Of a stretch of 64,000 nt of DNA, positions 40,411 through 57,371 are shown one piece after another. Positions within the stretch are counted from its first letter, which is position 1. Every line of letters begins with the position of its first letter. Position numbers and translations under genes: made by a program. The stretch is from a virus (Duplodnaviria > Caudoviricetes), in the IMG/VR virus record IMGVR_UViG_3300037067_012088, positions 64,001 to 128,000 of that record, one strand, 5' to 3'. The notes under the pieces were generated by a model. The model ran no database searches. It saw only the letters and a program-made list of their open reading frames with translations, and was not told the DNA's origin.

Positions 40411-40428
40411 GTAGGGTCGATCCCCTAT
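40411..40428. promoter_or_regulatory. TAGGG-N6-CCCTA palindromic box
   Basis: GTAGGGTCGATCCCCTAT. Confidence 0.7.
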
Positions 40429-40492
40429 TTTCGCTAGGGTGCTTCTCTCCCCTTCGCGCCGCTCCGGGGTGCGGCTCTGCCGCAGATTCTTA

Positions 40493-40518
40493 GGTAAACC
40501 CCTCTAGCTGCGGTGTAT
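40493..40518 (+). promoter_or_regulatory. late promoter facing non-coding DNA
   Basis: Consensus GGTAAAC-N11-CGGTGTAT on plus strand. Confidence 0.75.
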
Positions 40519-40524
40519 CAGTTA

Positions 40525-40850
40525 CCTGTTAGACTTCTTTCCACTAGGCGCGCACTCCTTAACTGGGTTTATCCCGGTCCCTCGTGTAACCCTTACTGAG
40601 TCAGTAGACTAACAGCGCACCGTGAATCGGTTCACCATTCAACTCTCAGGCCACGAGATTAAACGGCATGTCTAGACAGGACTGAAACAGGTCAAACCGC
40701 GCACCGGGTTTAGGGTGTAACGTAGCTCTTTGAGGTAGTCCATTCGTGACTATCACCCATGAGACCGCAAGACAGGCTAAGGCCGCTTGCGGCTTTGTCG
40801 CGTCTGTTTCGCGGGCCAAACGGCAGTCAGTCCCCTACAGCTAAAAGGTT
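40525..40850 (+). ncRNA. putative structured late ncRNA 1
   Basis: No ORF; nested helices whose mismatches read as G-U on the plus strand. Confidence 0.55.
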
Positions 40851-40894
40851 AGTATCCCGTAGGCAAGACGCAAGCTTAATCGGTGTAAAGAAAT

Positions 40895-41095
40895 CGTAAA
40901 GGATTCGTAAACGTAAATGTAAAGACCGCCGTGGCCGGAACCATGGGTAAGGAGATAGCGGGAAACGAGTAGGCTTGCATAAGAGCCTAGTCCAAGGGCA
41001 CTTAGGTAAACGGCCTTTGCGCGCAATCGGGGCGCCTAGTCAGTCTTTACGTTTACATTCAGCTCTAGGGAAACGACCCTAGCAGATTTACGCGA
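40895..41095 (+). ncRNA. putative structured ncRNA 2 (or 3' domain of ncRNA 1)
   Basis: 14 bp helix 40913-40926/41043-41056 enclosing hairpins; late-promoter variant at 40862-40888. Confidence 0.45.
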
Positions 41096-41492
41096 GCTTG
41101 GCATCCATTCGCGCGGTTGAGAATAGGTCTCATTATCACTCGCGAACGCGCCAAAAACGGCGCCTTTTCCCAGCACTAACATATTGAGGGAGTATAGGCA
41201 AAGAGTCAACACCTTTCCTCTAGGGTCCATTACCTAGGCGCGCCTAGGGTGTTTTGCCTACCTGACACTAGGGGATCAAAGATGCCCGTTTCGCGCGAAT
41301 TTTGCGCACTTGGCACGATTCCTTTTCGCTTATACGGGCATATCTAGCAAGGGTCTAGGCCACCATAGCCGGCCGCCCAGCCTTTCGCGTAACACGTTGC
41401 ACGGTAACGGAATACCCGTTTGCGGGTTTTGCGGTCGCGGGCCACCTAGTCAATCTTGTCGTTTACAATCCAGCATAGGGGAAACACCCTAG
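41065..41492. promoter_or_regulatory. cluster of four TAGGG-N6-CCCTA boxes
   Basis: 41065-41082, 41220-41237, 41244-41261, 41475-41492. Confidence 0.7.
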
Positions 41493-41660
41493 AGGAAACT
41501 GGCAGAGCTGGCATGAGGAGTGCGCGGCAAAGTGGAGCCAAAGTAGTTAGGTGCCTAATCATATTGGTGCGGGCAGGTGCGTAGGCGAGTGGTGAACTGT
41601 ATGAGTGGAGGTAGGACGGTAGTTAGGAGCCTAACTATTTAGTAGCGTCTCACTCATAGA

Positions 41661-41811
41661 CCACCCCTTTCCCCTCCTCCCTCACCCCTCTTTTTTACAC
41701 TCTCCCTTTATCTCTCTCCCTTGTATCCCCTTACGTTATCCTTACCCGGTTCTCTCTGTTCTCTCCTCCCTACTCCTTTCCCCTATCTGTTCTCCCTTTA
41801 CTCTGTTCTCT
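41661..41811. repeat. polypyrimidine/polypurine tract
   Basis: About 150 nt nearly G-free on plus strand; repeated CTGTTCTC. Confidence 0.8.
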
Positions 41812-41960
41812 AGGTGTCTAGGTAACGGGCTGGCAGGCCAGCCGGCCACCTAAGCCCCTAATCCCCCTATTTAGGTCACTGATTAGGTTAGGCTATCTCA
41901 AACCCTAGCGCTGCCCTGTTTGGCGCGGTTTACCCTGTTACTTAGACCAAAGGAAACGAG

Positions 41961-42173
41961 CTAGCCGGCCTTCCGTATCTTGGCCGCGCATTTCGGGCAC
42001 TCCGGCACCGTCTCACTTGCTAGCGATTCATCTAGACAGAGAAAATCAACCCGGCACCCACAAAGGGTCTTGCCAGTCTCTAGGTTGACCGCGTGATCCT
42101 GAAAGGCCACCTTTCCGCGCGCTTCCATATACTCGGCGCCCTTGCCTCCCATGGGATAGGTTTTCCATTTCAT
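41961..42173 (-). CDS. small zinc-binding protein
   Basis: H..TLCG..CPKC; TTGACA-N16-TAGGCT at 42181-42208. Confidence 0.65.
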   Translation of the reverse strand: MKWKTYPMGGKGAEYMEARGKVAFQDHAVNLETGKTLCGCRVDFLCLDESLASETVPECPKCAAKIRKAG

Positions 42174-42212
42174 GCGCGAAAGCCTACCCTTTGCGCCGTG
42201 CCTGTCAAGCGT

Positions 42213-42593
42213 TTAGCTCCGATAAGACATGACGCAAGAGGCATCACAAAAGGCGCGTCCGCTGGGGACGTATTCGCCTACGCTCCGGCCGCACCATTTG
42301 CACTCACTGGGGCGGGCACGCTCACAAAGCTTGCGTTGGGTCCGGTCAAACGTGGCCGGGGTATCCTGTTTGACCACCAAACCGCCCCGGCGGTTAATCT
42401 CGTTTTGACAGTAGCCAGAAAAGGCGCGCAACACGTCATAGCCGTTTCCGCCATCCCATGCGCTCGTAAAGGTCTCCCGGTAATGCGTGCTAAGGGGTTG
42501 CGAGCGAACTACGCGCAAGACTTTAACCACTTGACCGGCCGAAATGACGCGGCCAGAGGCAAGACGATGAAAGGGGAGGATGTTGGGGAGCAT
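42213..42593 (-). CDS. hypothetical protein with C-terminal zinc finger
   Basis: CKWCG..FCDASC. Confidence 0.6.
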   Translation of the reverse strand: MLPNILPFHRLASGRVISAGQVVKVLRVVRSQPLSTHYRETFTSAWDGGNGYDVLRAFSGYCQNEINRRGGLVVKQDTPATFDRTQRKLCERARPSECKWCGRSVGEYVPSGRAFCDASCVMSYRS

Positions 42594-42649
42594 GGTAGGG
42601 AGGTTAGTTTGATTGAACAGTGCCAAGCCTAACCGGCTCGCAAGTCATG

Positions 42650-42973
42650 TCAAGCCCCTTTCGGCCTGAATCGCTCTGCCCATTCCGCCAAATGCGGCAG
42701 CTCGGGCGCAATCTCTGCCAGCCGTGACAGATAGTAAAACGGTTCATCGGAATAGGTATCTATTCCCCCTATCCACAGATGCGAGTTGCCCGCGTGCTTT
42801 AACCAGCGCTCCGTGACCTTGGCGCGCGGGTTATGGGTCCGGTCATATAAGCGCCAATCCTGCCGGGGCATTTCGACTATTGCGAGCCGTTCCGAAACGT
42901 GCCGGGTTTGGCCTACGCGCAAGCCTAGCGTCTTGGCTAGTGCGGCGTTAAATGGGGCGGTTCTCGTTTCCAT
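42650..42973 (-). CDS. hypothetical early protein
   Basis: TTGACA-N16-TATGCT at 42981-43008, ATG 7 nt later. Confidence 0.65.
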   Translation of the reverse strand: METRTAPFNAALAKTLGLRVGQTRHVSERLAIVEMPRQDWRLYDRTHNPRAKVTERWLKHAGNSHLWIGGIDTYSDEPFYYLSRLAEIAPELPHLAEWAERFRPKGA

Positions 42974-43004
42974 GTCGCCAAGCATACCGGGGCGCCTAGC
43001 CGTG

Positions 43005-43211
43005 TCAAGCGCTCTTTTCAACCGCCGCCATTGCGGTTTCAGCCGTCGTAAACTCGCCTGATTGAACCCCTCCCGGAGAACGATGCACAAGCCAACAGTG
43101 CGCGACGGCAGACCGGAAGACTATTGCACCCAAAGCCTGATTCGCGTAGTGATAGGGGAACTCCGGACGATCCTTGTCCCTGATTCGTTTCCAGCCTTTG
43201 CGGGTTGTCAT
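43005..43211 (-). CDS. hypothetical protein
   Basis: 68 aa in array. Confidence 0.55.
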   Translation of the reverse strand: MTTRKGWKRIRDKDRPEFPYHYANQALGAIVFRSAVAHCWLVHRSPGGVQSGEFTTAETAMAAVEKSA

Positions 43212-43214
43212 GGG

Positions 43215-43394
43215 TTAAGCCTTCTTCGCCTGCTCGTTAAAGTAGTCCAGCGCGGCGCGCTTGGCGTCCCGCATGTTCCGGCATCCCCCGATTGAGTATT
43301 GCCCCAGATTCAGGCCATAGCAGGTGAAGACATAATAGCCGTTATCATTGCGGCCATGGGGAACGATGTCGGAGGGTTTGACGGTGGTTTTCAT
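43215..43394 (-). CDS. hypothetical protein
   Basis: TTGACC-N16-CATACT at 43404-43431. Confidence 0.6.
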   Translation of the reverse strand: MKTTVKPSDIVPHGRNDNGYYVFTCYGLNLGQYSIGGCRNMRDAKRAALDYFNEQAKKA

Positions 43395-43427
43395 CTGGGG
43401 CACAGTATGCAGAGAAGACGGGTTAGG

Positions 43428-43796
43428 TCAAGTCAGCAAATCACGTAAACGCGCAAGGTGTGGAAACTGGGTTTTGGGTTTCCGCTCACGGGATTTGCGT
43501 TTTGTCTTGACAGGCTCAGAGGCGTGCTTGACCGCTTCTACCGTATAATCCCCGTAATACTGGCTGTCTGGCTCATTTGGTTTGACCACCAACCCTTTCG
43601 CGCAAGCCGTCACGCTGTCCAGTCCAGTAAACTCCACCGCCTTGCGGTCACTGATTCGGTAGCCGTTTCCGCGCCAACGCTCTAGCACGTCATGTGCGTA
43701 ATGGGAATGAGCGCCTTTCACCCATTCGATTTCTTCGGCCTGTAGGTCGAAGCCTAGAGCCTCAAGCAGATTAGATACCTTTTCGCGGGGCGTCAT
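43428..43796 (-). CDS. hypothetical protein
   Basis: ATGA overlap. Confidence 0.6.
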   Translation of the reverse strand: MTPREKVSNLLEALGFDLQAEEIEWVKGAHSHYAHDVLERWRGNGYRISDRKAVEFTGLDSVTACAKGLVVKPNEPDSQYYGDYTVEAVKHASEPVKTKRKSRERKPKTQFPHLARLRDLLT

Positions 43797-44005
43797 GCGT
43801 CTTCACTCTCTAACACGGCAGCACGTTGCCGGGCGCGGTCAATCCGTTCGTTAAGCTCAATGAAGGTCTCCGAATTGTCCCATACCTTGACCTCGCGGAG
43901 CTTAGAGCTGCCCTGTGCGGCGCGGATTAGGCGCTGGCCTATCGCGTTTAGCTCGCGGCTTGACAGGGTGCCGGTGACTTGGACCGTGAAGCGTGCGCGG
44001 TTCAT
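43793..44005 (-). CDS. hypothetical protein
   Basis: ATGA overlap. Confidence 0.6.
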   Translation of the reverse strand: MNRARFTVQVTGTLSSRELNAIGQRLIRAAQGSSKLREVKVWDNSETFIELNERIDRARQRAAVLESEDA

Positions 44006-44415
44006 AGCGAACCCTTGGGTTCAAAAGTGAAGGCTGGCCGGTGGCGAGCGCGCGCCGTGTGAGCCTCTAGCATTTCGGCCCGTTCGCTCTCTGTGTGTTC
44101 GTCGGCGCGTTCGCGTTCTAGCTGCGCCTGCTCGGCTAGATCGGCAAGCCGGTTCTGCTCCTTTACATACGCGGCATGTTGGGGATGTTCGGCGTCCCAC
44201 TCGCAAAGGGCATCCGCGCCGGTCTTGTCACCGTCCGCAAAGACTGCCGCCTTCATGGTCTGAAAGGCCGCGTGTGTGGTTTCGCTGTGTTGGGCGAAGG
44301 TGTCCGAAAGCAGATAGCGAGCGCGCTCCTTGGCGTTGCGGATGCCTTCGCAATCGGCGCAACGGTCGATTTCCGTGCCGTCCCGAGCGTAGAGAATGGC
44401 GGTAAAGTATTTCAT
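44002..44415 (-). CDS. hypothetical protein
   Basis: TTGACA-N18-CATACT at 44424-44453. Confidence 0.65.
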   Translation of the reverse strand: MKYFTAILYARDGTEIDRCADCEGIRNAKERARYLLSDTFAQHSETTHAAFQTMKAAVFADGDKTGADALCEWDAEHPQHAAYVKEQNRLADLAEQAQLERERADEHTESERAEMLEAHTARARHRPAFTFEPKGSL

Positions 44416-44449
44416 CGGGGCACAGTATGGCAGAGAGGGCGAAGGCTTG

Positions 44450-44758
44450 TCAAGCGCCTTTGCTTGGGGTCACCTGCTCCTTACGCGCCTCATAGTCCGC
44501 CCGGGTGGCGCGCTTGCATATGGTGAGCCTGTAACCAATCCGGCGCAATTCGCGCGCAAGCTCCCGGTATTCGCTTGGCTTGGCAAGGCGCGTGCTCCTT
44601 ACCGTGCCGAACAAATCGGCGCTTGTGTGCTGGCCTAGATGGACATAGGCGGAACAGGTGCCCGGGTTGTAGGTGCCCGCCAAGGCGGGGAACAGCGCGA
44701 CGACTTCGCCAGACTTGGCGCGATCATGGCGGAAAATGACTTTGGTTGAGTTGGACAT
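44450..44758 (-). CDS. hypothetical protein
   Basis: VIFR..GEVVALFP..YVHLGQH..EY..L.REL..IGY small phage protein pattern. Confidence 0.7.
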   Translation of the reverse strand: MSNSTKVIFRHDRAKSGEVVALFPALAGTYNPGTCSAYVHLGQHTSADLFGTVRSTRLAKPSEYRELARELRRIGYRLTICKRATRADYEARKEQVTPSKGA

Positions 44759-44827
44759 AGGGAGGCGGGTTGATTGTTGAACGGCCCACACTCTAGCAGG
44801 CGCGCCGCCCGGGCCGAGCACAAAACG

Positions 44828-44845
44828 CTAGGGTCGATTACCTAG
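44828..44845. promoter_or_regulatory. TAGGG-N6-CCCTA box
   Basis: CTAGGGTCGATTACCTAG. Confidence 0.7.
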
Positions 44846-44884
44846 GCGTTTTCTGGGGGATCTCGCCTCTTGACAGGCAACCCA

Positions 44885-44914
44885 AAAACCCCGCGCGCCA
44901 GAGGCAACGCGGGG
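44885..44914 (-). terminator. intrinsic terminator
   Basis: CCCCGCG-loop-CGCGGGG-TTTTT. Confidence 0.65.
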
Positions 44915-44966
44915 CAATGGTGCGGCGGGTGATTCAGTCCGCGCGCGGGTGAGTTGGTCCTTTGGG

Positions 44967-45179
44967 TTAGATGGCTTGATTATGCGGGGTGAAATGTTCG
45001 CGCCGGTAGTTTTCGTCGGCCTCGCGCACGGCCTTGGCGTTCTGTTCGGTTTGCGTTCTCAACTCAGCCCGGCGCTTGGCTGAGAGATTCACAGTGGCCA
45101 TGCCTCCAATACTCTTGCGTTTCATGTAAGCTTCAAAAGCCGTGTCGGTCATGTTGGCCAGTTCGGAAATAGTCTTCAT
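44967..45179 (-). CDS. hypothetical protein
   Basis: 70 aa. Confidence 0.6.
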   Translation of the reverse strand: MKTISELANMTDTAFEAYMKRKSIGGMATVNLSAKRRAELRTQTEQNAKAVREADENYRREHFTPHNQAI

Positions 45180-45191
45180 GGTAATAAGGTA

Positions 45192-45497
45192 TCAGGGCAG
45201 GTTAGCCAAGTGGGGCATCGGCGGAAAGCGCGGGTCATGGATCGTGACAACCGGCGCGGGCGGCGCGTCGAGGGCTTCGCGGGCGATGCGGCCCGCGTCA
45301 CTCATGCGGAACACGTTGCCGCCGTCAAAGCGGACATAAAGCAAGCCCCGCTTGGCAAGGGCGGTCAAGCCGTTATTGGCCCCGATGGCATGGCGGTAGC
45401 CTTCGCAACGGGCTTCCCCAGCGCGAAACTCGACCCATTGCGGGCAGCGCTTGAGCAGGCGGGAGAGGTTGGCAGAGAGGGCGGGAGCGGTTGACAT
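45192..45497 (-). CDS. hypothetical protein, possible winged helix
   Basis: LTALAKRGLL..FRMSDAGR. Confidence 0.55.
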   Translation of the reverse strand: MSTAPALSANLSRLLKRCPQWVEFRAGEARCEGYRHAIGANNGLTALAKRGLLYVRFDGGNVFRMSDAGRIAREALDAPPAPVVTIHDPRFPPMPHLANLP

Positions 45498-45509
45498 GGT
45501 GGGAAAGGG

Positions 45510-45686
45510 TTACTCGGTGAAATCCATTTCGCCCACCTTGTTACCGTTGGAGTCCATCAGGCGGCGAAAGTGGGGGCCGTCGCGTTCGATATGCTTGGCG
45601 GCGTCGCGCAGGATGCGGGCGACTTCCGCGCCGGGGTCGTCGGTAAACGCGGCGTTGTCGGCTTTGATTGAGAGGATGATTTGCAT
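45510..45686 (-). CDS. hypothetical protein
   Basis: DNAAF..EVARILR..DSNGNKVG pattern. Confidence 0.7.
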   Translation of the reverse strand: MQIILSIKADNAAFTDDPGAEVARILRDAAKHIERDGPHFRRLMDSNGNKVGEMDFTE

Positions 45687-45770
45687 GGTGGCGGATCGTT
45701 GAGTGTTTGGCTTACTTGAACAAGGGAGAGAATGACAGGGAGCGCGGTGATTGCGAGAACAAAACGCGAG

Positions 45771-45788
45771 ATAGGGAATCAACCCTAG
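45771..45788. promoter_or_regulatory. TAGGG-N6-CCCTA box
   Basis: ATAGGGAATCAACCCTAG. Confidence 0.75.
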
Positions 45789-45985
45789 GACGCGCGGTTC
45801 TTGAGCTGATCTAGAAGGCTATCTAGCGAAGCATAACCGGATAGGCGCACGCCGAATCGATTCGCGCCCCAGCGCACGCCGTTTGCGGTTTGATAGCTGT
45901 TGACCCACCAACGGGCGGACCATGTGCCATGGTTTACAGTATGGGTGCTTTCCTTGAGGGGCACGAGTTGGCCGGGATAGTGCAT
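45785..45985 (-). CDS. hypothetical protein
   Basis: Stop codon lies inside the box. Confidence 0.55.
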   Translation of the reverse strand: MHYPGQLVPLKESTHTVNHGTWSARWWVNSYQTANGVRWGANRFGVRLSGYASLDSLLDQLKNRAS

Positions 45986-46063
45986 TGCGGGCGTTTGGTT
46001 TAGTTGGTTGACTTGAACACGGCCCAGCATGACGCACCGGGCGCGAATGTCGAGCGGATTTGA

Positions 46064-46106
46064 TGCAGGTTGATCCCCTAGAGCGGGCCTAGGGGTAACA
46101 CCTTAC
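46064..46106. promoter_or_regulatory. tandem TAGGG-N6-CCCTA boxes (one degenerate)
   Basis: TGCAGGTTGATCCCCTAG and CTAGGGGTAACACCTTAC. Confidence 0.6.
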
Positions 46107-46361
46107 CGGCCAGACAAGCCCAGAGGCAACGCCCCGGCGATACTTCGGCCCGCGTCCTTGCCATGCTTCCAGCTTGGGGCGGGCACGTTCGGCGAAGGTC
46201 AACGGATCGAGCAGCACCCCGGCGCGCTCCTTGCTTGTGCCCTCGGGGTCGAGATAGAACACGCCGGACAGGTGCCCGGCTTCGTCGCGGTAAAACGTCA
46301 CGGTGCAACCGCAAGCGCGTTCCTTGACTTGCAGGCGTTCGAGTTCGTCGCGGTGCGTCAT
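46089..46361 (-). CDS. hypothetical protein
   Basis: 90 aa. Confidence 0.55.
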   Translation of the reverse strand: MTHRDELERLQVKERACGCTVTFYRDEAGHLSGVFYLDPEGTSKERAGVLLDPLTFAERARPKLEAWQGRGPKYRRGVASGLVWPVRCYP

Positions 46362-46364
46362 GGA

Positions 46365-46730: not shown

Positions 46731-46750
46731 GTTGGGCGAATGGTTGAGGG

Positions 46751-47335
46751 TTAGGCGTGAACCGCAACGCCGCGCGTGTTGTAGTGCTGATCCAGCGGCA
46801 GGAGATTGCGCGCCGGGATAGAAGCGCCCCGGTGCGTGAGATAGGCGCGGGCGGCGGCTTCCTCGGTGGCGTGATACTCGGGCAGCCCTTCAACCTTGAA
46901 CTGATTGGCGGCATCCTTGACCCGGGCGATATGCGCGCCCCAGCTCCGCGCCTTCCGCACAATCTCGTTGCTCGTGCTCTTGAGGTCGGCTTTGCGCCCC
47001 ACATACAGCGCCACGCCGCGCGGGTCGCCTTGGTTGTAGCTCCACAGGTCGGGGTGAGCGGCCATGATGGCGGCGAGTTGCTTGCGCGCGCCGGTCTCGC
47101 GGTCGGGGATGGGGTAAGCCGCATAAGGGCCATTGCCTCGCAGATACCAGCCCGACACGCGGGACGGTTTACCCGTCTCTTCATCGCGGACGATTTCCCC
47201 GTTGCACTCGGCGGTTGACCAGCGGGAAAGGGTCATCTCGATCCGGCGAAGGCGGTTAGCCTCGGCGTAGGTGAAGCCCAGCGCGGCCAGATCGTTAAGC
47301 AGGCGGGCAAGGCGGATGGCTTTGGATTCGTTCAT
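46751..47335 (-). CDS. hypothetical protein
   Basis: LRRIEMTLSRW..ECNG..QGDPRG.ALY; start placed at MNESK. Confidence 0.7.
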   Translation of the reverse strand: MNESKAIRLARLLNDLAALGFTYAEANRLRRIEMTLSRWSTAECNGEIVRDEETGKPSRVSGWYLRGNGPYAAYPIPDRETGARKQLAAIMAAHPDLWSYNQGDPRGVALYVGRKADLKSTSNEIVRKARSWGAHIARVKDAANQFKVEGLPEYHATEEAAARAYLTHRGASIPARNLLPLDQHYNTRGVAVHA

Positions 47336-47503
47336 GTAGTTTCCGTTAGAACTGGCTGGAGCCGCCAGAGTCTCCGGCTTCCCGCGTTGGTGCGGGGTGT
47401 GGCCTTTGACTAGGTGAGAGAATGACCGGCTTGCGGGATAATGCAAGAAGAAACTTTCAGTTTCTTTGTTGCGCTACGCGCAAGCGCAATGTGGGGAAAT
47501 CGC

Positions 47504-47545
47504 GGGAGAATCTTACCCTAGGGATGACTAGGGTGTTGACCCTAG
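47504..47545. promoter_or_regulatory. tandem TAGGG-N6-CCCTA boxes
   Basis: CTAGGGTGTTGACCCTAG at 47528-47545 plus half-site. Confidence 0.75.
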
Positions 47546-48352: not shown

Positions 48353-48370
48353 GTAGGGGGATCACCCTAG
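48353..48370. promoter_or_regulatory. TAGGG-N6-CCCTA box
   Basis: GTAGGGGGATCACCCTAG. Confidence 0.75.
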
Positions 48371-48808
48371 GCGCGAACGCAACCCGCGCGGCCCATGAAT
48401 CGCGGCTTTCTTGGCGCGCCCGGTGGTCAGATCGGCGGGGGTGATGTCGTTGATATAGGGGAGGCCGTTGCAAAGATACGCCTCGTATTCCCTGACCGCC
48501 CGGAAGAAGTCGCACACAGTAGCGCGGCCCGGTTGGATGGGCTGCCAATCGCTTTTGTCGTCCCACTCGCTAGCCTTGTCGGTCACCTTTTCGCTCGGGT
48601 CGCTCACGCTTTGCGCACGATACTCGCCACGAGGAAACGCCGCGCCCATAGCGCACAGGACCCCAGTAAGCTTGGGTTCTACTGCATGCGCCGCCCGATA
48701 GAGCTGCACCAGATGGTTGCGAATCAACGGCGCGAAGGTCTCGGCGTCGAGTTTGGCGATAGCCGTTTCGCGGCGCTCGGCCACTTGAGAGAAGAAGTCT
48801 TTAGGCAT
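48362..48808 (-). CDS. hypothetical protein
   Basis: 148 aa; TCGACA-N16-TAACCT promoter. Confidence 0.65.
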   Translation of the reverse strand: MPKDFFSQVAERRETAIAKLDAETFAPLIRNHLVQLYRAAHAVEPKLTGVLCAMGAAFPRGEYRAQSVSDPSEKVTDKASEWDDKSDWQPIQPGRATVCDFFRAVREYEAYLCNGLPYINDITPADLTTGRAKKAAIHGPRGLRSRLG

Positions 48809-48864
48809 GGGAACAGGTTAGCAGATTGCCGGAACATGTCGAGGACGGAAATCCCTCATATTGG

Positions 48865-48882
48865 CTAGGGTCTTGACCCTAC
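48865..48882. promoter_or_regulatory. TAGGG-N6-CCCTA box
   Basis: CTAGGGTCTTGACCCTAC. Confidence 0.75.
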
Positions 48883-49328
48883 CCTCGATAGGGAACGAAC
48901 CGCCCGGCGCGCCACACGAAACGCGGCCATTTCGTGCGCTTCCAATGGGCCGCGCTTGTCCCCTCGCAGTCATGCCAGCCCCCTACGAATCCGGCCAGTC
49001 CTTCGCGCTTGGCTAGGGCGCGCATCTGGCGCGTGACTTCACCCCATGCGGTGTGTCGATCATAGCGAACGACAAGCGCCTTGACGGCCGGGCCGGTTGC
49101 ATCGGCTAGCGTTTGGTAGCCGGGCAACGCATAGAAAGCGGGATTGCCGCGACGGACAACACGCAGCCACGGCCCCGAGCCTTCGCGCCTGAATGAGCCG
49201 CCCCGACATGTCACGCCACAGGTGCCGCCCACGTTGGCGAAGTTGGCACTCAAGCGCGCCGCCGTAGAAGCACGGACAGGGCGCAAGGTTTCGATATACT
49301 GGGGAGGCTCACGCCTCACGGTTGACAT
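48879..49328 (-). CDS. hypothetical protein
   Basis: 149 aa. Confidence 0.55.
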   Translation of the reverse strand: MSTVRREPPQYIETLRPVRASTAARLSANFANVGGTCGVTCRGGSFRREGSGPWLRVVRRGNPAFYALPGYQTLADATGPAVKALVVRYDRHTAWGEVTRQMRALAKREGLAGFVGGWHDCEGTSAAHWKRTKWPRFVWRAGRFVPYRG

Positions 49329-50460: not shown

Positions 50461-50505
50461 AAAGAGGAGAATGATAGGGAGTGCGAGAAAGGTCGAGATA
50501 AATCG

Positions 50506-50548
50506 TGCGATTTGATACCCTAGCGCGCGACTAGGTAGTCAACCCTAT
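50506..50548. promoter_or_regulatory. tandem TAGGG-N6-CCCTA boxes
   Basis: Half-site plus CTAGGTAGTCAACCCTAT. Confidence 0.7.
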
Positions 50549-51099: not shown

Positions 51100-51155
51100 G
51101 GCGGTAAGAGTGACAGGTGCGGGTGATAAAGCGAGAGGAAAGTGACGCGAAGCGT

Positions 51156-51195
51156 CAAAGTTGATACCCTAGCGCGATTGGGGGGAATCCCCTAG
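51156..51195. promoter_or_regulatory. tandem TAGGG-N6-CCCTA boxes
   Basis: TTGATACCCTAGCGCG shared with 50512 copy plus TGGGG-N6-CCCTA. Confidence 0.6.
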
Positions 51196-51465
51196 CAGCC
51201 GGCGTGCCTCGGCATACGTCTCGTTATCCTCGGGCTTGAGTCGGCTTACCGTGAGGAAGACGCGCATGGACTCGGCACAGTCACCTAGGGACGCGCGCAA
51301 AGCGGACCACTCATTAGCCGCGCGCGCAAGGTAGTTCGCTACCTCAGTAGGCATTTGATGCGAGCCGATCCGGTTGCGGTGCGTCGTGCCGGGTTCCTGA
51401 TAGGTCAGGAGAGAATGGCCCGGCTGGCTGGTCTCGGCGACGGTGAAGAGAGGAGGGTTAAGCAT
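51169..51465 (-). CDS. hypothetical protein
   Basis: 98 aa. Confidence 0.55.
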   Translation of the reverse strand: MLNPPLFTVAETSQPGHSLLTYQEPGTTHRNRIGSHQMPTEVANYLARAANEWSALRASLGDCAESMRVFLTVSRLKPEDNETYAEARRLLGDSPQSR

Positions 51466-51474
51466 GGGGGCTAG

Positions 51475-51918
51475 CTAGACAGGCTGATTGAACCGATGGG
51501 CATACTCAACCGCGAACGCGGCGGTGCGCTCCGGTGAATAGGCGCTCCCGTCATTCAGCGCCTCCAAGTCATCGCCCAACCGGAACAGGAGATTGTCCAG
51601 TCCGCGCACGACAAACTGACTCTTGCGATGGTGAGACTGGTTGATGTCGCCAAATGAGTCGGCGAAGCACGCGGGTGAATCGGAACGGATATTCCAGCAG
51701 GCCACATGCACGTCGGGCTGGCAGCTCTTCCCGTTGAAGTCAACCCATATAACTGCGCCGCCCTTGTGGGCGATTTCAAGGCGCAGCTCGTGCGGCCCGG
51801 CGAACTCGTTGTCGTCCGTGACGGTTGCCCCAAGGGATTCGCACAGCGCGCGGACCTGTCGGATCATTTCGATGCGGTCAGCCTTGCGGCGTTCGGTGAG
51901 GGGAGCGATTTGATTCAT
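51475..51918 (-). CDS. hypothetical protein
   Basis: Start placed at MNQIAP. Confidence 0.65.
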   Translation of the reverse strand: MNQIAPLTERRKADRIEMIRQVRALCESLGATVTDDNEFAGPHELRLEIAHKGGAVIWVDFNGKSCQPDVHVACWNIRSDSPACFADSFGDINQSHHRKSQFVVRGLDNLLFRLGDDLEALNDGSAYSPERTAAFAVEYAHRFNQPV

Positions 51919-51977
51919 GGGATGGAGTATGTGAGGGATTCGCGCCGGATGCAAGCGCGGCGACTACTTATATTGAC

Positions 51978-51995
51978 CTAGGGAGATCACCCCAC
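51978..51995. promoter_or_regulatory. TAGGG-N6-CCCTA box
   Basis: CTAGGGAGATCACCCCAC. Confidence 0.65.
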
Positions 51996-52190
51996 CCGCG
52001 AGATTCGGAACGCACCTGCCGCGCCGCCGCCCAACCTGTAGCCGCTCCCCATGTCAAGGGCCGCGCGCATATCGGAGAGAGTGGCCGGATCAAAGCCGTC
52101 GTTGGCTTCGAGCATTTTGTCCCACGTGGTCAGGGTGGGTTCACCTCGCGGGTTGCCGTAGGTGTCGAGGGGTTGGATGGAAATAGTCAT
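51987..52190 (-). CDS. GGGAAGAF-motif small protein (paralog 1)
   Basis: Similar to 53725-54000. Confidence 0.7.
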   Translation of the reverse strand: MTISIQPLDTYGNPRGEPTLTTWDKMLEANDGFDPATLSDMRAALDMGSGYRLGGGAAGAFRISRVG

Positions 52191-52195
52191 GGGGA

Positions 52196-52699
52196 TCAGA
52201 GAGCCAGCGCGGCGTTCGCGCCCTTGACGGAAGCGTCGTCTTTGCCGCCGAAACGCTCGCGGTCGTCGTCGGGCATGTCGCTGATGTCGTCGAGCAGATT
52301 GGAGAGAGCAGCGCGAAGTGCCGCGATCTTGTCTGCGTCGCTGACCTCCTTAACCTCGATGCCCTGTTCTTTGGCGGCGGCGAGGATGAGCTTATCGAGC
52401 ACGGCGTCTACTTTTCCCTCGGCAATGATGGCGTCGAAATCGAGATTGCAGCCGCGCCCGTATGTGCGTCGGGGCAGCTTGCCCACTTTGAACAGCGCGC
52501 GGAACTCGGCGCCCCGGTTGCACAGTCCATTATTGAACAGGTCGTAGTAGCAGTTCCGCGCGCGGCGGTAACGGTCAAGAGCCTTGTTCGCGCCCTTGGC
52601 CTCTGGGCACTCGCCAGACGCGGGAATCAGTTTGTCCATCTTGTCGGCAACAGCTTTGTAGCGGCCTTGGCTATTCCAGTAGGAGGTTGAGAGGTTCAT
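52196..52699 (-). CDS. hypothetical protein
   Basis: YWN..G..YYDLFNNGLCN. Confidence 0.7.
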   Translation of the reverse strand: MNLSTSYWNSQGRYKAVADKMDKLIPASGECPEAKGANKALDRYRRARNCYYDLFNNGLCNRGAEFRALFKVGKLPRRTYGRGCNLDFDAIIAEGKVDAVLDKLILAAAKEQGIEVKEVSDADKIAALRAALSNLLDDISDMPDDDRERFGGKDDASVKGANAALAL

Positions 52700-52749
52700 G
52701 ACAGCAATCTGACAGGGTTTCAGTGATAAGGGAAGCGAAATCGCGCGGG

Positions 52750-52767
52750 ATAGGGAATGGACCCTAA
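52750..52767. promoter_or_regulatory. TAGGG-N6-CCCTA box
   Basis: ATAGGGAATGGACCCTAA. Confidence 0.75.
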
Positions 52768-53210
52768 GCCCTCATAGGGTCCGCAATCCCGTCATACAGG
52801 ATGCCAAGGTCCATGTTCTGCCGCTCGCCTGTGGCATAGCAGTCGTCAATGGCTCCGTCATATTCGGTTTGGCGCCAACCGCGTTTGGCCGCGTAGACCT
52901 CAAGGATCAACCACGCTTCATCGAAGGTGTAGGGTAAGCAACCGGAGCACGGGAGGGTCAGCGCCTCAACCCAGCGGCCCTTGACTTTCTTGCGCTCGAT
53001 GGGGATGACGACCGTGAAATGGCGGCGCTGATTGACCTGTCCCGCGTCAATGTCGGCGGCGCGCTGGATAAGGGCAGCCTTACGATCCTCGGCGCGGAAC
53101 GAGTCGGCGGGAATCACCTTGGCGATATATCTCATTTCGTTGGCCACCTGAGCGGGAGTCATGTGACCGGAAGAGATGGCGGGGTTGCCGCGATAGTAGG
53201 GGGCGTTCAT
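52764..53210 (-). CDS. hypothetical protein
   Basis: 148 aa. Confidence 0.6.
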   Translation of the reverse strand: MNAPYYRGNPAISSGHMTPAQVANEMRYIAKVIPADSFRAEDRKAALIQRAADIDAGQVNQRRHFTVVIPIERKKVKGRWVEALTLPCSGCLPYTFDEAWLILEVYAAKRGWRQTEYDGAIDDCYATGERQNMDLGILYDGIADPMRA

Positions 53211-53452
53211 GATTGGTAAAGCGAAGAGAGGAGTTGACCGTCACGAATCGCGCGTAACTCACCGCGCAAGTCACCACGACGAATCTTGAGGGTCATAGGC
53301 TTGTCGAAATAGGTCGTCGCCAGAATGAGGGTAACGCGATTGGCCTTGGATACCGTCCCGCTGACTGGCGAAAACGCTCGGTCGCCCTGAGCACGGATGA
53401 GGTCGCCCGCCTGAATGGTTTCGAGAGTGATTAGGCCGGTGGGTTGTTTCAT
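53207..53452 (-). CDS. hypothetical protein
   Basis: 81 aa; TCGACA-type promoter. Confidence 0.6.
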   Translation of the reverse strand: MKQPTGLITLETIQAGDLIRAQGDRAFSPVSGTVSKANRVTLILATTYFDKPMTLKIRRGDLRGELRAIRDGQLLSSLYQS

Positions 53453-53510
53453 GGGACGGATTAGACCACAGGTTGTGCGGTTTGTCGAATGGTGAGATGC
53501 CTCAATCGTG

Positions 53511-53528
53511 ATAGGGTATAGACCCCAG
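53511..53528. promoter_or_regulatory. TAGGG-N6-CCCTA box
   Basis: ATAGGGTATAGACCCCAG. Confidence 0.65.
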
Positions 53529-53530
53529 AT

Positions 53531-53728
53531 TCAAGCAACCCACTTGAATCCTAGCTTGCCCGCGCACTTCTTGACCTGCTTCATAGCACGGCGCGCAAGG
53601 GGCTTGGCTTCATTCTCGGGGTTAATCTGCTCGAATATGAAACGCAGTGAGTCAAGATCTTCGCTCGTCACGCGAAGAGAGAAGACGACACGCTTACCGT
53701 TTGGGATATAGGGATCGCCGGGATTCAT
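53531..53728 (-). CDS. hypothetical protein
   Basis: ATGA overlap. Confidence 0.55.
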   Translation of the reverse strand: MNPGDPYIPNGKRVVFSLRVTSEDLDSLRFIFEQINPENEAKPLARRAMKQVKKCAGKLGFKWVA

Positions 53729-54000
53729 GCGGGAATCCGCGTCAATCGAAATGCCCCCGCCGCGCCGCCGCCAATCACATACTCGCGCCCTAAACGAAGG
53801 GCGGTCGTCATCTCACCTAGCGTGAAGAGGTCGTGCTTGAAGCCGTTGTTGGCCCGCAGAAAAGCGTCCCAGTTCTCGGTGAAGGCCTTGTCGGTGGGAT
53901 GGCCGAGGTGGTCTAAGGGTTGGATTGTCACTTGCGGTGTTGCTTGCGGGCTTACGCCCACGGCGCAACGATGTCCTGCGGACATGGGGAGAGGTTTCAT
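53725..54000 (-). CDS. GGGAAGAF-motif small protein (paralog 2)
   Basis: IQPLD..G.P..W..L.AN.GF..GGGAAGAFR. Confidence 0.7.
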   Translation of the reverse strand: MKPLPMSAGHRCAVGVSPQATPQVTIQPLDHLGHPTDKAFTENWDAFLRANNGFKHDLFTLGEMTTALRLGREYVIGGGAAGAFRLTRIPA

Positions 54001-54004
54001 GTGG

Positions 54005-54301
54005 TCAAGCCTTGTTGAGTGCCCGGCGCGCGGCGTTGGCCCAGTCATCACAGAAGCGGATGGCTCCGATAGCGTCGGGTATGAGTTTGAGCACATGCTT
54101 AAAGCTCGCTGAATCGGCAACCTCGTTCGGCGAGAGCCCGCTTGCGATGCGTGCTGCCTTGTATTCGGCATAGGTGAGCGACCACACGTCGCCGCGCTTG
54201 AAGCGGGCGTGCATGATGCCGTAGGCAATGGCTTCGTATTCGCTCTTGTCGCAGACGCTTTCCCAAGGAAAGGTGAGGAAAGTTGATGGAGGAAGGTTCA
54301 T
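54005..54301 (-). CDS. hypothetical protein
   Basis: 98 aa. Confidence 0.65.
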   Translation of the reverse strand: MNLPPSTFLTFPWESVCDKSEYEAIAYGIMHARFKRGDVWSLTYAEYKAARIASGLSPNEVADSASFKHVLKLIPDAIGAIRFCDDWANAARRALNKA

Positions 54302-54305
54302 GGGG

Positions 54306-54560
54306 TTAGATAGCTTGGGTGTTCATGCAGGCGGCATGGGCGCGGATAACGATTTGGCAAGCATGGTCACCGCCTTGGAAAGCGTCATAGATGCGACTGA
54401 TGCCGTTGACCGCTTCGGCGCACTCATGACGTGTATCTCGGTCTTGGGCGCGCAGTTCATATTCGACAATCTCGGCGAGTGCGCCAAGTTGGCCTGCGCT
54501 CAGATATGGGCTGACGCGGGTAAGGATGCGGGCGACACGGGCTTCGGTGGTAGGTTTCAT
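54306..54560 (-). CDS. hypothetical protein
   Basis: QDRDTRHECAEAV; TTGAGT-N17-TATAGT promoter. Confidence 0.65.
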   Translation of the reverse strand: MKPTTEARVARILTRVSPYLSAGQLGALAEIVEYELRAQDRDTRHECAEAVNGISRIYDAFQGGDHACQIVIRAHAACMNTQAI

Positions 54561-54610
54561 GTGAGGATACTATACCAGATTCGGAGGCTTGACTCAATAG
54601 GGGGTGCCCC

Positions 54611-54985
54611 TCATTCGGAGTGAGGTGAATTGCCTACTGCCGCCAAAGCCTCCTTCAGCGTCATGTTGGGACCATCGCCCCGCGAGAACGTGACAGGCTT
54701 GTCCGCCGACTTGAACATGGGCACGTTAGCCGTGTAGCCGCCCAGATAGAGCTTGAGCCACTGCGTTGCGCGAGTAGGGGACATGCGCCAGCCCGGTTGA
54801 TGCCCGCGAGCCCATCGGCCATTCAAGCCTTCCGCGAGCCAGCTTGCACGGTCCTTCCAGCCGTCCGGATTCTCGCGCTCAAGGGCCAGCACCATGCCCT
54901 TACCATATCGCGCGAGCGAACAGGAATAGCGCACCCCATCATGAGTGCCGGAATAGGAGAGGGGGATAAGGTCGGGGTTTCTCAT
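54611..54985 (-). CDS. hypothetical protein
   Basis: ATGA overlap. Confidence 0.6.
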   Translation of the reverse strand: MRNPDLIPLSYSGTHDGVRYSCSLARYGKGMVLALERENPDGWKDRASWLAEGLNGRWARGHQPGWRMSPTRATQWLKLYLGGYTANVPMFKSADKPVTFSRGDGPNMTLKEALAAVGNSPHSE

Positions 54986-55512
54986 GTGGTCTTCCCCGTC
55001 ATCATGACGCCGAAAGCGCTCCCGTTGCCGCCGTTGACATGCTCCCGGCGATTGGAGTCAAGGGGACGCAAGACAATCGGCATCCCGCCCTCGCGTATCT
55101 CAATCTCCATCAGCCCACCGCCGAGAGCGCGCATCAGGGTCTCTAGATTCTTGGCGCTGACGACGATCTTAATCGGCGTGCCATCGCGCGGAATCACTTG
55201 CTCCACATTGGGTGCGGCGGGCTGCTTGTCGGGGCGCGGAAAGGAGGCTCCATTGGCGCACACATAACGGTCGCCGCAATCGACTTGTAACGGCGCACTG
55301 GCGGGAGTGGCCTTTCGCGCGTTAGACATGGCTTCAAGCGAGATGATACCGTCGCGGTCATCGGTGCCGCGCTCACAGGGGAACACGCCCATGATTTGAC
55401 CGTTTAGCGCGATGACGGTTGAGCCGGACAAGAAGGGCGCTTCCCACTGGGGGCGGCGCGCATCAGGGTCGGCAACGAGCAGTTCAGGCTTGAATGATTT
55501 GGAGAGCTTCAT
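54982..55512 (-). CDS. truncated DNA polymerase III beta-clamp-like protein
   Basis: RP..ALNGQI..PNVEQVIP..SAKNL..P..GVMM resembles clamp middle/C-terminal motifs. Confidence 0.5.
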   Translation of the reverse strand: MKLSKSFKPELLVADPDARRPQWEAPFLSGSTVIALNGQIMGVFPCERGTDDRDGIISLEAMSNARKATPASAPLQVDCGDRYVCANGASFPRPDKQPAAPNVEQVIPRDGTPIKIVVSAKNLETLMRALGGGLMEIEIREGGMPIVLRPLDSNRREHVNGGNGSAFGVMMTGKTT

Positions 55513-55542
55513 CGGATTACTCTAATGGGTTGATTGCCGTTG

Positions 55543-55857
55543 TCACGAAGAATCGGGTCGCCAAAGCACGAAATGCTTGGTCACGAAACGCGAGAGCTTG
55601 GTCTGAATCTGCTTAACGGTGAAGCCCTCTACGATGACAAGAAACTGAAGGGTATAGTGACTGTCCCACTCGACAATCTCAAGACCCGTCTCCTTCTTCG
55701 CGCGGTTCAGGAATTCGTCATAGCCCGGTCCCGTCCAATAGGCTTGCACCATGTCGTTAGGTTCGTGTTCGGCGGGATCGAACATGGGAGATGACGGTTT
55801 GAGACTAAGGGTGCTGTCTCCTACGTCAAACCATGCTTTCCAGAGTGAGGCTTTCAT
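55543..55857 (-). CDS. hypothetical protein
   Basis: Start uncertain. Confidence 0.5.
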   Translation of the reverse strand: MKASLWKAWFDVGDSTLSLKPSSPMFDPAEHEPNDMVQAYWTGPGYDEFLNRAKKETGLEIVEWDSHYTLQFLVIVEGFTVKQIQTKLSRFVTKHFVLWRPDSS

Positions 55858-55955
55858 GTCAGGCAAGAAAGCACCCACGCGCCCAAGACGGCGAGCGTCA
55901 CGGCGAGCAGGAGGAGGTTAGGGTCACGGGTTTTCACTGCCCATATCCTACACCC

Positions 55956-56180
55956 TTAACTCGCCCTGTCAACACCAATTCGCTTCCGCCATCTCTTTTC
56001 TTGCGCCGCAATCACCTTCTCCATCTTGAGTATCGCTGCCTTGAACACGGGTAAAGCTGCCTCTTCCGGCGTCATATCGGGTATCTCAACCGGCGCGGGG
56101 AAGGTTAACGGAAACTGAGGGGAATCAGTGAGAGGAGAGCACACGCGGGGATTGTAGCGAATGGGTTGGTCCTCGTTCAC
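55956..56180 (-). CDS. hypothetical protein
   Basis: GTGA overlap. Confidence 0.5.
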   Translation of the reverse strand: MNEDQPIRYNPRVCSPLTDSPQFPLTFPAPVEIPDMTPEEAALPVFKAAILKMEKVIAAQEKRWRKRIGVDRAS

Positions 56181-56440
56181 GCGCGATGCTTGACAATCCA
56201 GCGCCGGTAGTTCGCCTCATAGACAGAAGGCTCGCCCTCGGTCTTGGCGAACGGCACGCCGTTCAAGTGAGCAAGGGCCGTGTCGAAGAAGTCGAGAGAG
56301 GCTTGACCCACAGAGAACGTGTCATGAGGGAATAGGGCGCGCAGCTCGCGGTAGCGCAGATCGAGGAAGAGGTCGAGCGCGATTGAGGGGTTATCGCGGA
56401 GCTTCTGAGAGCAGTTGATGAGATAGGCGGCGAGAGTCAT
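56177..56440 (-). CDS. hypothetical protein
   Basis: Start placed at MTLAAY. Confidence 0.6.
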   Translation of the reverse strand: MTLAAYLINCSQKLRDNPSIALDLFLDLRYRELRALFPHDTFSVGQASLDFFDTALAHLNGVPFAKTEGEPSVYEANYRRWIVKHRA

Positions 56441-56441
56441 G

Positions 56442-56768
56442 TTAATCGGGCTGATTCGCCGGAACACCCTCAACGAACGTCGCTTCGAGATGGTCGAGCA
56501 GCGCGGCCAGCGTGTCGTGCTGATAGATAGCCGGCCACCACTTGTTCTCAATCGCAACGTCGGACCTGTTGAACGTCCACTTACCATTGACATCCTGCAT
56601 CAGCGGATGCGAGTCTTGGATATCCCACGTGTGCCCGAAGTGGCGTCGTTCGGCTCCCGGAGCCGGACAATACCAGATGTCGAGGATGCGGTCTTTCTCG
56701 CCTCGGATGTTGAGGCGCGCCGGGTCTTTCGAGGCCACGAAACGAGCAGTTGAGGGGTAGGTGTTCAT
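56442..56768 (-). CDS. hypothetical protein
   Basis: ATGA overlap. Confidence 0.6.
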   Translation of the reverse strand: MNTYPSTARFVASKDPARLNIRGEKDRILDIWYCPAPGAERRHFGHTWDIQDSHPLMQDVNGKWTFNRSDVAIENKWWPAIYQHDTLAALLDHLEATFVEGVPANQPD

Positions 56769-57124
56769 GGGATAGTCGGCTTCACCAGTTCCCACACCGC
56801 GCGCAGGGTGGTCAGGGAATGGGTATTACGGTAGCTGTCGAACGCGCGTTTGATGTCGCGATACAGTGTCTCGGCAGCCTTCTCATCTTGCCACTCTTGC
56901 TCGGAGGCGTAGAGCTGACGATTGACGCAGAACTCGGTCTTCTCCCCCCACGTATCGAGATGGAATTGAATCTCATGATGTGGAGCCATCTCAGTTGAGC
57001 ACGAGAAATACTTGCGCCCCACTGAGCGCACGATGATCGGGGTAGCCTTTTGGGCGACGTTTCGCGCCGCGTTGCCCACGTTGACGGAATAGAGGGTTTG
57101 GCCGATGACGGGAGTGGGTTTCAT
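56765..57124 (-). CDS. small beta-barrel-like hypothetical protein
   Basis: IGQTLY..VRSVGRKYF. Confidence 0.65.
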   Translation of the reverse strand: MKPTPVIGQTLYSVNVGNAARNVAQKATPIIVRSVGRKYFSCSTEMAPHHEIQFHLDTWGEKTEFCVNRQLYASEQEWQDEKAAETLYRDIKRAFDSYRNTHSLTTLRAVWELVKPTIP

Positions 57125-57155
57125 GCGCATATCCTGTAGGGCTTGTCCTCTAGGG

Positions 57156-57371
57156 TCAAGACTCAATTTGACTCGCGAACAAAGTGTAAACCCAAAGCAA
57201 AGCCTCGTCATCCTGCGGTTCGTCGAAGGGGATTACCTCGTCTAGAGGGCAACCCAAATGGCCGGCATAGAGTTGGGCTAGATTCGTCAGCGTCTCAACC
57301 GGCTGTTTCCTTAGCCACGCAATCACGTTGGCGTTGCGGAGGGCGCGGGAGAGGGGAGCGGAAGGAGTCAT
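57156..57371 (-). CDS. hypothetical protein
   Basis: ATGA overlap. Confidence 0.55.
   Translation of the reverse strand: MTPSAPLSRALRNANVIAWLRKQPVETLTNLAQLYAGHLGCPLDEVIPFDEPQDDEALLWVYTLFASQIES

Follow-up and report, generated by a model that had tools for sequence, protein, structure and literature searches.

What does a 16-bp palindrome, TAGGG-N6-CCCTA, do when it is repeated at the borders of small genes in a large phage genome, and what reads it? The question is raised by the window analysed here, a stretch of 64,000 nucleotides that comprises bases 64001-128000 of the 191,387-bp virus record IMGVR_UViG_3300037067_012088, rated 92% complete. Nearly all of its genes lie on the minus strand, the region between 42 and 59 kb is a run of small open reading frames (ORFs), 30 of which have no significant Pfam match, and no close relative was found among cultured phages by megablast or tblastn. 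An earlier note on this DNA had proposed that a dimeric factor activates deliberately weakened promoters through these boxes, and had named motif enrichment and box-to-promoter spacing as checks. The results suggest that the boxes are probably operators or upstream activating sites, at which a regulator docks for one class of phage genes. The more specific reading preferred here, that the box is bound by a dimer as part of a composite promoter module and that the bound factor most likely activates, is given a probability of about 0.5. Positions are those of the window unless marked as genome positions.

The palindrome is far more frequent than dinucleotide shuffles of the sequence would predict. 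Eight perfect copies are present in the window against 0.04 expected (starting at 40412, 41066, 41476, 45772, 47529, 48354, 48866 and 52751) and, allowing one mismatch, the count rises to 18 against 1.25 expected. Ten copies carry one mismatch, eight of them starting at 41221, 41245, 44829, 46090, 50532, 51179, 51979 and 53512, and 16 of the 18 matches fall within 40.4-53.5 kb. The 16 boxes listed in the earlier note all exist, at coordinates one base higher than given there; its two degenerate copies are also present, at 54598-54613 (two mismatches) and 57137-57152 (one mismatch). In the structural arm, where the note had noticed none, there is a lone one-mismatch match at 5849, which is chance level. 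Over the whole genome, all eight perfect and eight of the 12 one-mismatch boxes lie within genome 100-120 kb, and the box block covers about 13 kb of minus-strand small ORFan genes, or 17 kb counting degenerate copies, out of 191 kb. The spacing of the arms is strict: when TAGGG-Nx-CCCTA was scanned for x from 0 to 20, eight perfect matches were found at x=6, one at x=15 and two at x=16, and the N6 boxes share constant arms around six spacer positions that are free to vary. Enrichment in the box region extends to the inverted arrangement, CCCTA-N7-9-TAGGG, through extra half-sites and tandem boxes. A literature search for the motif returned nothing relevant, and a search of viral contigs with the 16-mer CGCGCTAGGGTATCAA gave two chance matches, both in contigs without boxes.

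The boxes are coupled to promoters. When the sequences downstream of every box were lined up (50 sites in five genomes), three elements appeared at preferred distances from the box end: GATT[CT] at 3 nt in 8 of the 50 sites (0.11 expected per offset), CTCG at 10 nt in 7 (0.22 expected) and the TG of an extended -10 at 30 nt in 9 (0.09 expected). No phasing peaks were seen on the opposite strand. In its modal form the module consists of the box, 3 nt, GATT(C/T), 2 nt, CTCG(A/C)nT, about 13 nt, and TGn with a -10 hexamer such as CATTCT or TAACCT; on its 3' side follows either an ATG 6-8 nt on, giving a leaderless gene, or a conserved GTTCAA...AAC(C/T) leader. Many sites are tandem, with a good distal box, about 7-9 nt, and then a half-degenerate proximal box such as TAGGGTATCAAcctgc, the end of which again lies 9-10 nt from CTCG. 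The 30-nt offset to the TG places the box centre near -54. The activator-dependent late promoters of P2/P4-type phages (Ogr/Delta) carry a dyad, TGT-N12-ACA, centred near -55, and the present module resembles them in that a dyad recurs at several promoters of one temporal class, at a favoured position (-54/-55) ahead of a poor -35. However, the box sequence and arm spacing differ and the Ogr/Delta zinc-finger gene was not found here; furthermore, there are more sites, tandem pairs of a strong and a weak box are common, and the boxes head ORFan mini-operons rather than morphogenesis operons.

The -35 elements of these promoters are poor. Among candidate promoters with an extended -10 and either a leaderless start or a GTTCAA leader, a TTGAC -35 was present in none of the 15 linked to a box and in 12 of the 31 without one (Fisher p=0.004), the box-linked hexamers being TCGCTT, TCGCAA, TCGACA, TTGCGC and similar. 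Canonical minus-strand promoters of the TTGAC type (TTGACA/C/T) number 28 in the genome, with none in the box-dense genome 109-118 kb. The TCGnnn hexamers named earlier were confirmed, as were the TTGACA/TTGACC promoters of the 42-44.4 kb region. The extended -10 (TGn) is kept at all box promoters. In the middle promoters of T4, a non-palindromic 9-mer, the MotA box (used with AsiA), is centred at -30 and replaces the -35. The likeness lies in a phage-specific promoter class that keeps the host -10, often extended, and has an element for a phage factor in place of a good -35, whereas the element here is a palindrome upstream of a residual -35-like CTCGnnT.

The same box occurs in related genomes. 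Through homologues of the gene at 46751-47335 (family F9, 146 matches), three long contigs from metagenomes were reached, and a 20-kb portion of each was examined; a fourth relative, the 3.1-kb JGI contig L100, was found by DNA pattern search. Contigs of box-bearing relatives are recorded as GCA_040384245.1 JAWVHA010000276.1, Logan SRR21686410_3595 and SRR30923180_180652. The boxes of the four relatives are as follows.

L011: 6 perfect and 6 one-mismatch boxes.
L012: 2 perfect boxes and 1 one-mismatch box.
L014: 10 perfect and 4 one-mismatch boxes.
L100: 1 perfect and 3 one-mismatch boxes.

In the box-sharing relatives F9 is only 59-65% identical, yet the box sequence is the same. No such box was present in 80 more distant viral contigs with an F9 gene and, taken with its presence in four relatives, this indicates a system confined to a narrow clade. 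Searches for kin in IMG/VR with portal, the 345-aa DUF932 protein, F9 and F8 (a second family of the block, below) returned nothing but contigs that were short or distant, and L011 is absent from the species genomes of GTDB. Around the boxes, the relatives differ in gene content in a mosaic fashion.

The individual boxes and their promoters, from the upstream to the downstream end of the block, are listed below.

57137-57152, minus strand: one-mismatch match inside the spacer of a TTGACC-N17-CAGGAT promoter, which may be a chance match.
54598-54613, minus strand: degenerate box with two mismatches, which holds the upstream TGA stop and abuts TTGAGT-N17-TATAGT.
53512-53527, minus strand: box with one mismatch (TGGGG half), 3 nt past the upstream stop codon.
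53460-53488, minus strand: promoter TCGACA-N17-TCTAAT, beginning 23 nt downstream of box 53512, with a leaderless ATG at 53452.
52751-52766, minus strand: perfect box, the first TAG of which is the stop codon of gene 52764-53210.
52706-52714, minus strand: extended -10 TGTCAGATT downstream of box 52751, with a leaderless ATG at 52699.
51979-51994, minus strand: box with one mismatch and the upstream stop TGA in its spacer; promoter TTGCAT-N17-CATACT at 51926-51954.
51179-51194, minus strand: distal box with one mismatch, within the 3' end of gene 51169-51465.
51156-51171, minus strand: half-degenerate proximal partner of box 51179; promoter TCGCTT-N16-CACTCT at 51107-51134.
50532-50547, minus strand: distal box with one mismatch; half-degenerate proximal box at 50507-50522.
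50468-50496, minus strand: promoter TCGACC-N17-CATTCT after box 50532, with no credible ORF downstream.
48866-48881, minus strand: perfect box, its TAG being the stop codon of gene 48879-49328.
48815-48842, minus strand: promoter TCGACA-N16-TAACCT after box 48866; the leaderless ATG at 48808 begins family F8.
48354-48369, minus strand: perfect box with the F8 stop TGA in its spacer and extended -10 TGCTATACT downstream; it heads a two-gene cassette that is missing between F8 and F9 in L014.
47529-47544, minus strand: perfect box, its TAG being the upstream stop codon; half box at 47505-47520.
47419-47446, minus strand: F9 promoter TTGCAT-N16-CATTCT, 82 nt downstream of box 47529, beyond an inserted hairpin-rich stretch.
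46090-46105, minus strand: distal box with one mismatch and the upstream stop at its 3' edge; half-degenerate proximal box at 46065-46080.
46026-46053, minus strand: promoter TCGACA-N16-CATGCT after box 46090.
45772-45787, minus strand: perfect box, its TAG being the stop codon of gene 45785-46030.
45729-45756, minus strand: promoter TCGCAA-N16-CATTCT after box 45772, of an operon that includes ORF 45192-45497.
44829-44844, minus strand: box of the recurrent TAGGTAA variant in modal geometry, with TCGGCC at 11 nt and the TG of TGCTAGAGT at 30 nt (promoter 44790-44817).
40353-41960, minus strand: gene-free hub of 1.6 kb at the downstream end of the block, with five boxes and two copies of GTAGTTAGG-N2-CCTAA.
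41476-41491, minus strand: perfect box in the hub, belonging to copy 1 of a unit of about 45 nt that is repeated (the box, then TGTAAACG and TGACTAGG).
41221-41260, minus strand: tandem boxes that start at 41245 and 41221, each with a single mismatch; TTGACT-N17-CAATAT (41181-41209) follows after 11 nt.
41066-41081, minus strand: perfect box in the hub, in the second copy of the repeat of about 45 nt.
40412-40427, minus strand: perfect box abutting the -35-like hexamer CAGACA (promoter 40383-40411), at the head of gene 40002-40352, which has a GTTCAA-type leader.

In L014, too, the block closes with a hub that is free of genes and has several boxes, and there the tandem-box block 41221-41260 is conserved entire (16596-16680); the stretch best conserved between the two hubs comprises these paired boxes and the TTGACT-N17-CAAT(A/C)T promoter next to them. 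The second palindrome of the hub, GTAGTTAGG-N2-CCTAA(C), has just two copies in the whole 191-kb genome, at 41547-41558 and 41623-41634, is conserved in the L014 hub (16387) and may be a separate operator or an origin element. At F9, about 80 nt (47447-47528, minus strand) that are lacking in the relatives separate box 47529 from the promoter, and this insert, which contains a GAAACT/AGTTTC hairpin followed by TTCTT, has displaced the box from its promoter. F9 itself (46751-47335, minus strand) is a protein of 194 aa with an RRIEMTLxRW...ECNG...QGDPRG signature and no Pfam family; its relatives occur in at least 333 viral contigs, and in every close relative the gene lies behind a long 5' untranslated region.

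Given that the box is an inverted repeat, it could act as an RNA hairpin or intrinsic terminator rather than as a DNA site. This was rejected on account of weak stems, the lack of a U-tract after the boxes and the lack of covariation. The folding energies of the 16-mers as RNA average -4.6 kcal/mol and range from -0.9 to -7.2. None of the 23 one-mismatch boxes keeps a Watson-Crick pair at the changed position, with four keeping G-U, and only 2-3 of the 41 two-mismatch matches are compensated. Half-site variants recur: there are seven cases of TAGGTAA, all of them in the half farther from the promoter, and ten of TGGGG/CCCCA. The half-degenerate proximal boxes are unable to fold, yet they stay in register with CTCG, and a scan of 39-59 kb with Rfam found nothing. 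The absence of covariation, the unfoldable boxes in register and a half-site distance of one helical turn together point to a dimeric protein that would read the box as double-stranded DNA.

The same evidence bears on a possible likeness to the promoter-early stem-loops (PeSLs) of T4-type phages, which are, on comparison, the nearest published parallel in genome architecture: in both, an inverted repeat and a sigma70-type promoter form a module at ORFan borders in a hyperplastic region, and one indel between relatives is bounded by modules (PMC2839356, PMC4122927). If the boxes were linkers of this kind, a hairpin would attenuate upstream transcription and the module would serve mainly as a patch of homology for recombination that shuffles ORFan cassettes, kept uniform by gene conversion instead of a binding protein. 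The hyperplastic ORFan block and the mosaic gene content would fit, as would the arrangement between F8 and F9, where the window has a box, two genes and a box and L014 has a single box, which mirrors the RB49/phi1 example (PMC2839356). PeSL stems likewise have conserved sequences (PMC4122927), similarity among the promoter spacers is slightly higher within a genome (0.55) than between genomes (0.42), and L014 has a paralogous pair with 83% identity. However, this explanation is improbable for several reasons: first, PeSL stem-loops are stable, G/C-rich, proven terminators that lie between or over the -35 and -10 of near-consensus promoters (PMC2839356, PMC4122927), whereas the present element is a weak 5-bp palindrome with a strict N6 spacer, positioned upstream near -54 of promoters with a weak -35, with no stable terminating stem-loop within or over them. 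Second, the unfoldable boxes kept in register do not suit a hairpin, and five boxes cluster in the gene-free hub. Third, the likeness of spacers within a genome could be mere base composition. As to the earlier suggestion that cassettes shuffle at boxes, the F8-F9 indel is one clean case, but breakpoints also fall at box-free junctions, for example after F9 and after F8 in L011, and with relatives this divergent the endpoints cannot be mapped. The modules may recombine as a side effect.

A dimeric DNA-binding protein should have a gene, in the phage or in its host. Six-frame searches of the genome gave no HTH_3, HTH_17, RHH_1, MarR_2, Mor, Ogr_Delta or GcrA match, and the activators that belong to upstream-dyad promoters, Ogr/Delta (PF04606) and Mor-type (PF08765), are thus without a six-frame match. 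Pfam scans of 191 small ORFs (119 + 72) returned no transcription-factor family; the only signalling domain in these scans is a stand-alone response-regulator receiver domain of about 141 aa at genome 8875-9300 (minus strand, Pfam E 1e-14), which has no output domain. The candidate named in the earlier note lies in a box-headed operon:

45192-45497, minus strand: ORF of 101 aa with a predicted winged-helix-like fold, a weak candidate for the box binder.

Its Atlas model resembles MarR/ArsR-type winged helices (TM 0.6-0.66), and an AlphaFold model (pLDDT 68.6) gave weak Foldseek matches to Sso10a-2, MarR and PadR (E 6e-3 to 9e-2). Homologues were found only on contigs of 24,864, 4,599, 3,259 and 1,691 bp, the longest of which, a Logan contig, carries homologues of both this ORF and F9; none is present on the box-sharing relatives of 165, 107 and 75 kb, where tblastn of the corresponding loci was also empty. 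Two further candidates were rejected: F8, for which fold and relatives were both uninformative, and F9 as an autoregulator with phage-specific palindromes, since no consistent palindrome lies upstream of 30 distant F9 genes and the palindromes enriched in distant phages are coding repeats, iterons or other operators.

The want of a recognisable DNA-binding regulator in these searches of the 191-kb genome raises the possibility that the binder is a transcription factor or nucleoid protein of the host, the phage having copied a host operator to couple its genes to a host signal. The identity of the box in all relatives that have it is what a shared host factor would produce. This scenario is nevertheless quite unlikely, given that the box keeps to a single genomic block instead of being scattered, and that the middle-gene regulators of large lytic phages are usually phage-encoded and often unrecognisable by sequence.

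On the coding strand, each box is the end of a gene or mini-operon, and in 7 of the 11 boxes outside the hub the stop codon of the upstream gene lies inside the box, as the earlier note had observed of the cassette borders. The registers of these seven stops vary (TAG at box positions 1-3 in four, TGA in the spacer in two, TAG at the 3' edge in one), which suggests that each ORF merely extends as far as the box and terminates at the stop that happens to be in frame there; the stops are best explained by genome compaction and not by a coupled function. Sites of this placement recall the stoperators of Cluster A mycobacteriophages, which are likewise many copies of a short protein-binding site in short intergenic gaps, often over stop codons (PMC9283540, PMC6550527), and the boxes might be repressor or shut-off operators, through which a phage or host protein would silence the promoters or, as at stoperators, block polymerases reading through from the upstream cassette. 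Stoperators are asymmetric sites of 13-14 bp, bound by a monomeric immunity repressor, oriented with transcription, spread genome-wide in temperate phages and unphased to downstream promoters (PMC9283540, PMC6550527). The box, in contrast, is palindromic and N6-strict, is confined to about 13 kb of 191 kb, and has its fixed offset to the downstream promoter, with the distance to the upstream stop varying. No repressor-type helix-turn-helix gene (HTH_3, HTH_17, RHH_1, MarR_2) that could be a cognate immunity repressor was found; an integrase was not searched for. A repressor would gain from the three matches that touch or enter a core promoter (40412 and 54598 abut the -35, 57137 lies in the spacer), from the conserved hub promoter with its tandem boxes beside a good TTGACT -35, and from the extended -10s, which suggest that the promoters could be active on their own. 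However, the modal site near -54 does not overlap the core contacts of RNA polymerase, and the systematic pairing with a weak -35 is a signature of activator dependence. Repression is therefore considered unlikely, though it deserves to be kept in mind.

Activation, as the preferred reading has it, is favoured by the position of the site ahead of the core promoter, by the weak -35s, by the lack of TTGACA promoters in the block and by tandems that combine a strong distal with a weak proximal box. It is disfavoured by the extended -10 of every box promoter, by the two sites that directly adjoin a -35 and by the good -35 of the hub promoter, and activation specifically is best regarded as an even call. 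Several observations weigh against it or against the reading as a whole. The extended -10 could make box promoters partly independent of a factor; in model bacteria it can render the -35 dispensable. The conserved tandem-box hub promoter fits repression equally, as may the abutting boxes 40412 and 54598. The distance from box to -35 varies within the window (0, 11, 11, 15, 16, 23, 23, 23, 24, 35, 36 and 44 nt) and the rigid 30-nt class comes mostly from the relatives; these window distances fall mostly in steps of about 11-12 bp, which hints at helical phasing, although the fit is loose and is given no weight. The comparison rests on four related fragments, the box-less control set contains false promoters, which makes the TTGAC contrast conservative, and the regulator-family searches, in six frames and in the 191 small ORFs, gave no binder. 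What stands of the earlier proposal is a set of conserved, distributed cis-elements tied to a non-consensus -35 class, as the 30-nt offset, the relatives and the lack of TTGAC in 15 promoters indicate; protein binding, dimer stoichiometry, activation over repression and timing are what we infer from it.

It is suggested that a sequence-specific dimer would bind double-stranded DNA with one subunit on each TAGGG/CCCTA half-site, the half-site centres being 11 bp, or about one helical turn, apart. Box, GATTC, the poor -35 CTCGnnT and the extended -10 would then form a composite promoter module, in which a strong distal and a half-degenerate proximal box may allow cooperative binding. The bound factor would recruit or stabilise host RNA polymerase where the -35 is too poor alone, and the outcome would be a delayed-early or middle set of ORFan mini-operons, apart from the TTGACA promoters and from late promoters read by a phage sigma factor.

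The late-type promoters have the form GGTAA(A/T)C-N12-CGGTGTATC, with 14 copies genome-wide, on the minus strand and mostly before structural genes. Examples are given at window positions (genome coordinate minus 64000).

6474, 7287, 10019, 11022, 21068, 26970, 28753, 32351, 59560 and 61404, minus strand: late-type promoters.
18767-19483: phage sigma gene (Sigma70_r2).

The late-type sequence looks like a promoter of an ECF-type sigma factor, which would fit this sigma gene. The possibility that the phage sigma reads the TAGGTAA variant of the box as a -35 was rejected on inspection, there being no late -10 element at the right distance. Thus, of the three-tier cascade proposed earlier, the three promoter classes exist (TTGACA type, box type and late GGTAAAC-N12-CGGTGTATC), and their temporal order is presumed.

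Leadered transcripts carry the motif GTTCAA-N1-5-AAC(C/T) after the -10 (46018, 44782, 42618 and 40376, minus strand), which may be a signal for translation or stability; the coding strand of the relatives L011, L012 and L014 has 6, 5 and 8 copies of it, and the opposite strand 0-1. Genes without this leader begin 6-8 nt past the -10 and are leaderless, and Shine-Dalgarno sequences are not evident; the pattern hints at a host that uses many leaderless messages. The element 3 nt past the proximal boxes of L011, L014 and L100 is often GATTC or GAATC, which fits GANTC, the methylation site of CcrM, and the phage encodes two methyltransferases of the N6_N4 type, one Dam and one C5 methylase. A link through GANTC and GcrA was rejected, given that the window copies are mostly GATTT and that a GcrA gene was not found in the genome, and a methylation link of the element is doubtful. 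Family F13 (42213-42626, minus strand) encodes 137 aa, is 84% identical to its L011 counterpart, far above its neighbours, and ends in a C-terminal CxxC...FCDxSC zinc ribbon, which we take to resemble the gyrase inhibitor YacG. A stretch with a TTGACA-N17-TAGTAT promoter (GCTTGACATCCCC...) is present at both ends of the record (genome 124 and 191380), and this repeat suggests a terminal overlap and a genome that is perhaps complete or circularly permuted, though labelled linear.

In summary, the box is a real, conserved regulatory cis-element of a familiar kind, with a new sequence and in a new phage clade; that phages may have a promoter class marked by a cis-element of its own is well known in principle, and the finding is in that respect useful rather than surprising. 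It is conceivable, though unlikely, that the binder belongs to a family beyond current profiles and that the module doubles as a recombination linker by which self-expressing ORFan cassettes are swapped. If true, this would amount to PeSL-like shuffling that makes use of an activator operator, in a lineage of phages with no relation to T4. For the biology of this uncultured clade of phages of about 190 kb, the box offers a handle on gene regulation: it is a defined 16-bp operator, conserved in relatives and with about a dozen target promoters, that is usable as bait for its regulator, and it marks which ORFan genes are co-expressed. The cassettes it delimits are of a self-contained design, each with an operator, a weak promoter, a leaderless gene and a stop codon taken from the next operator.

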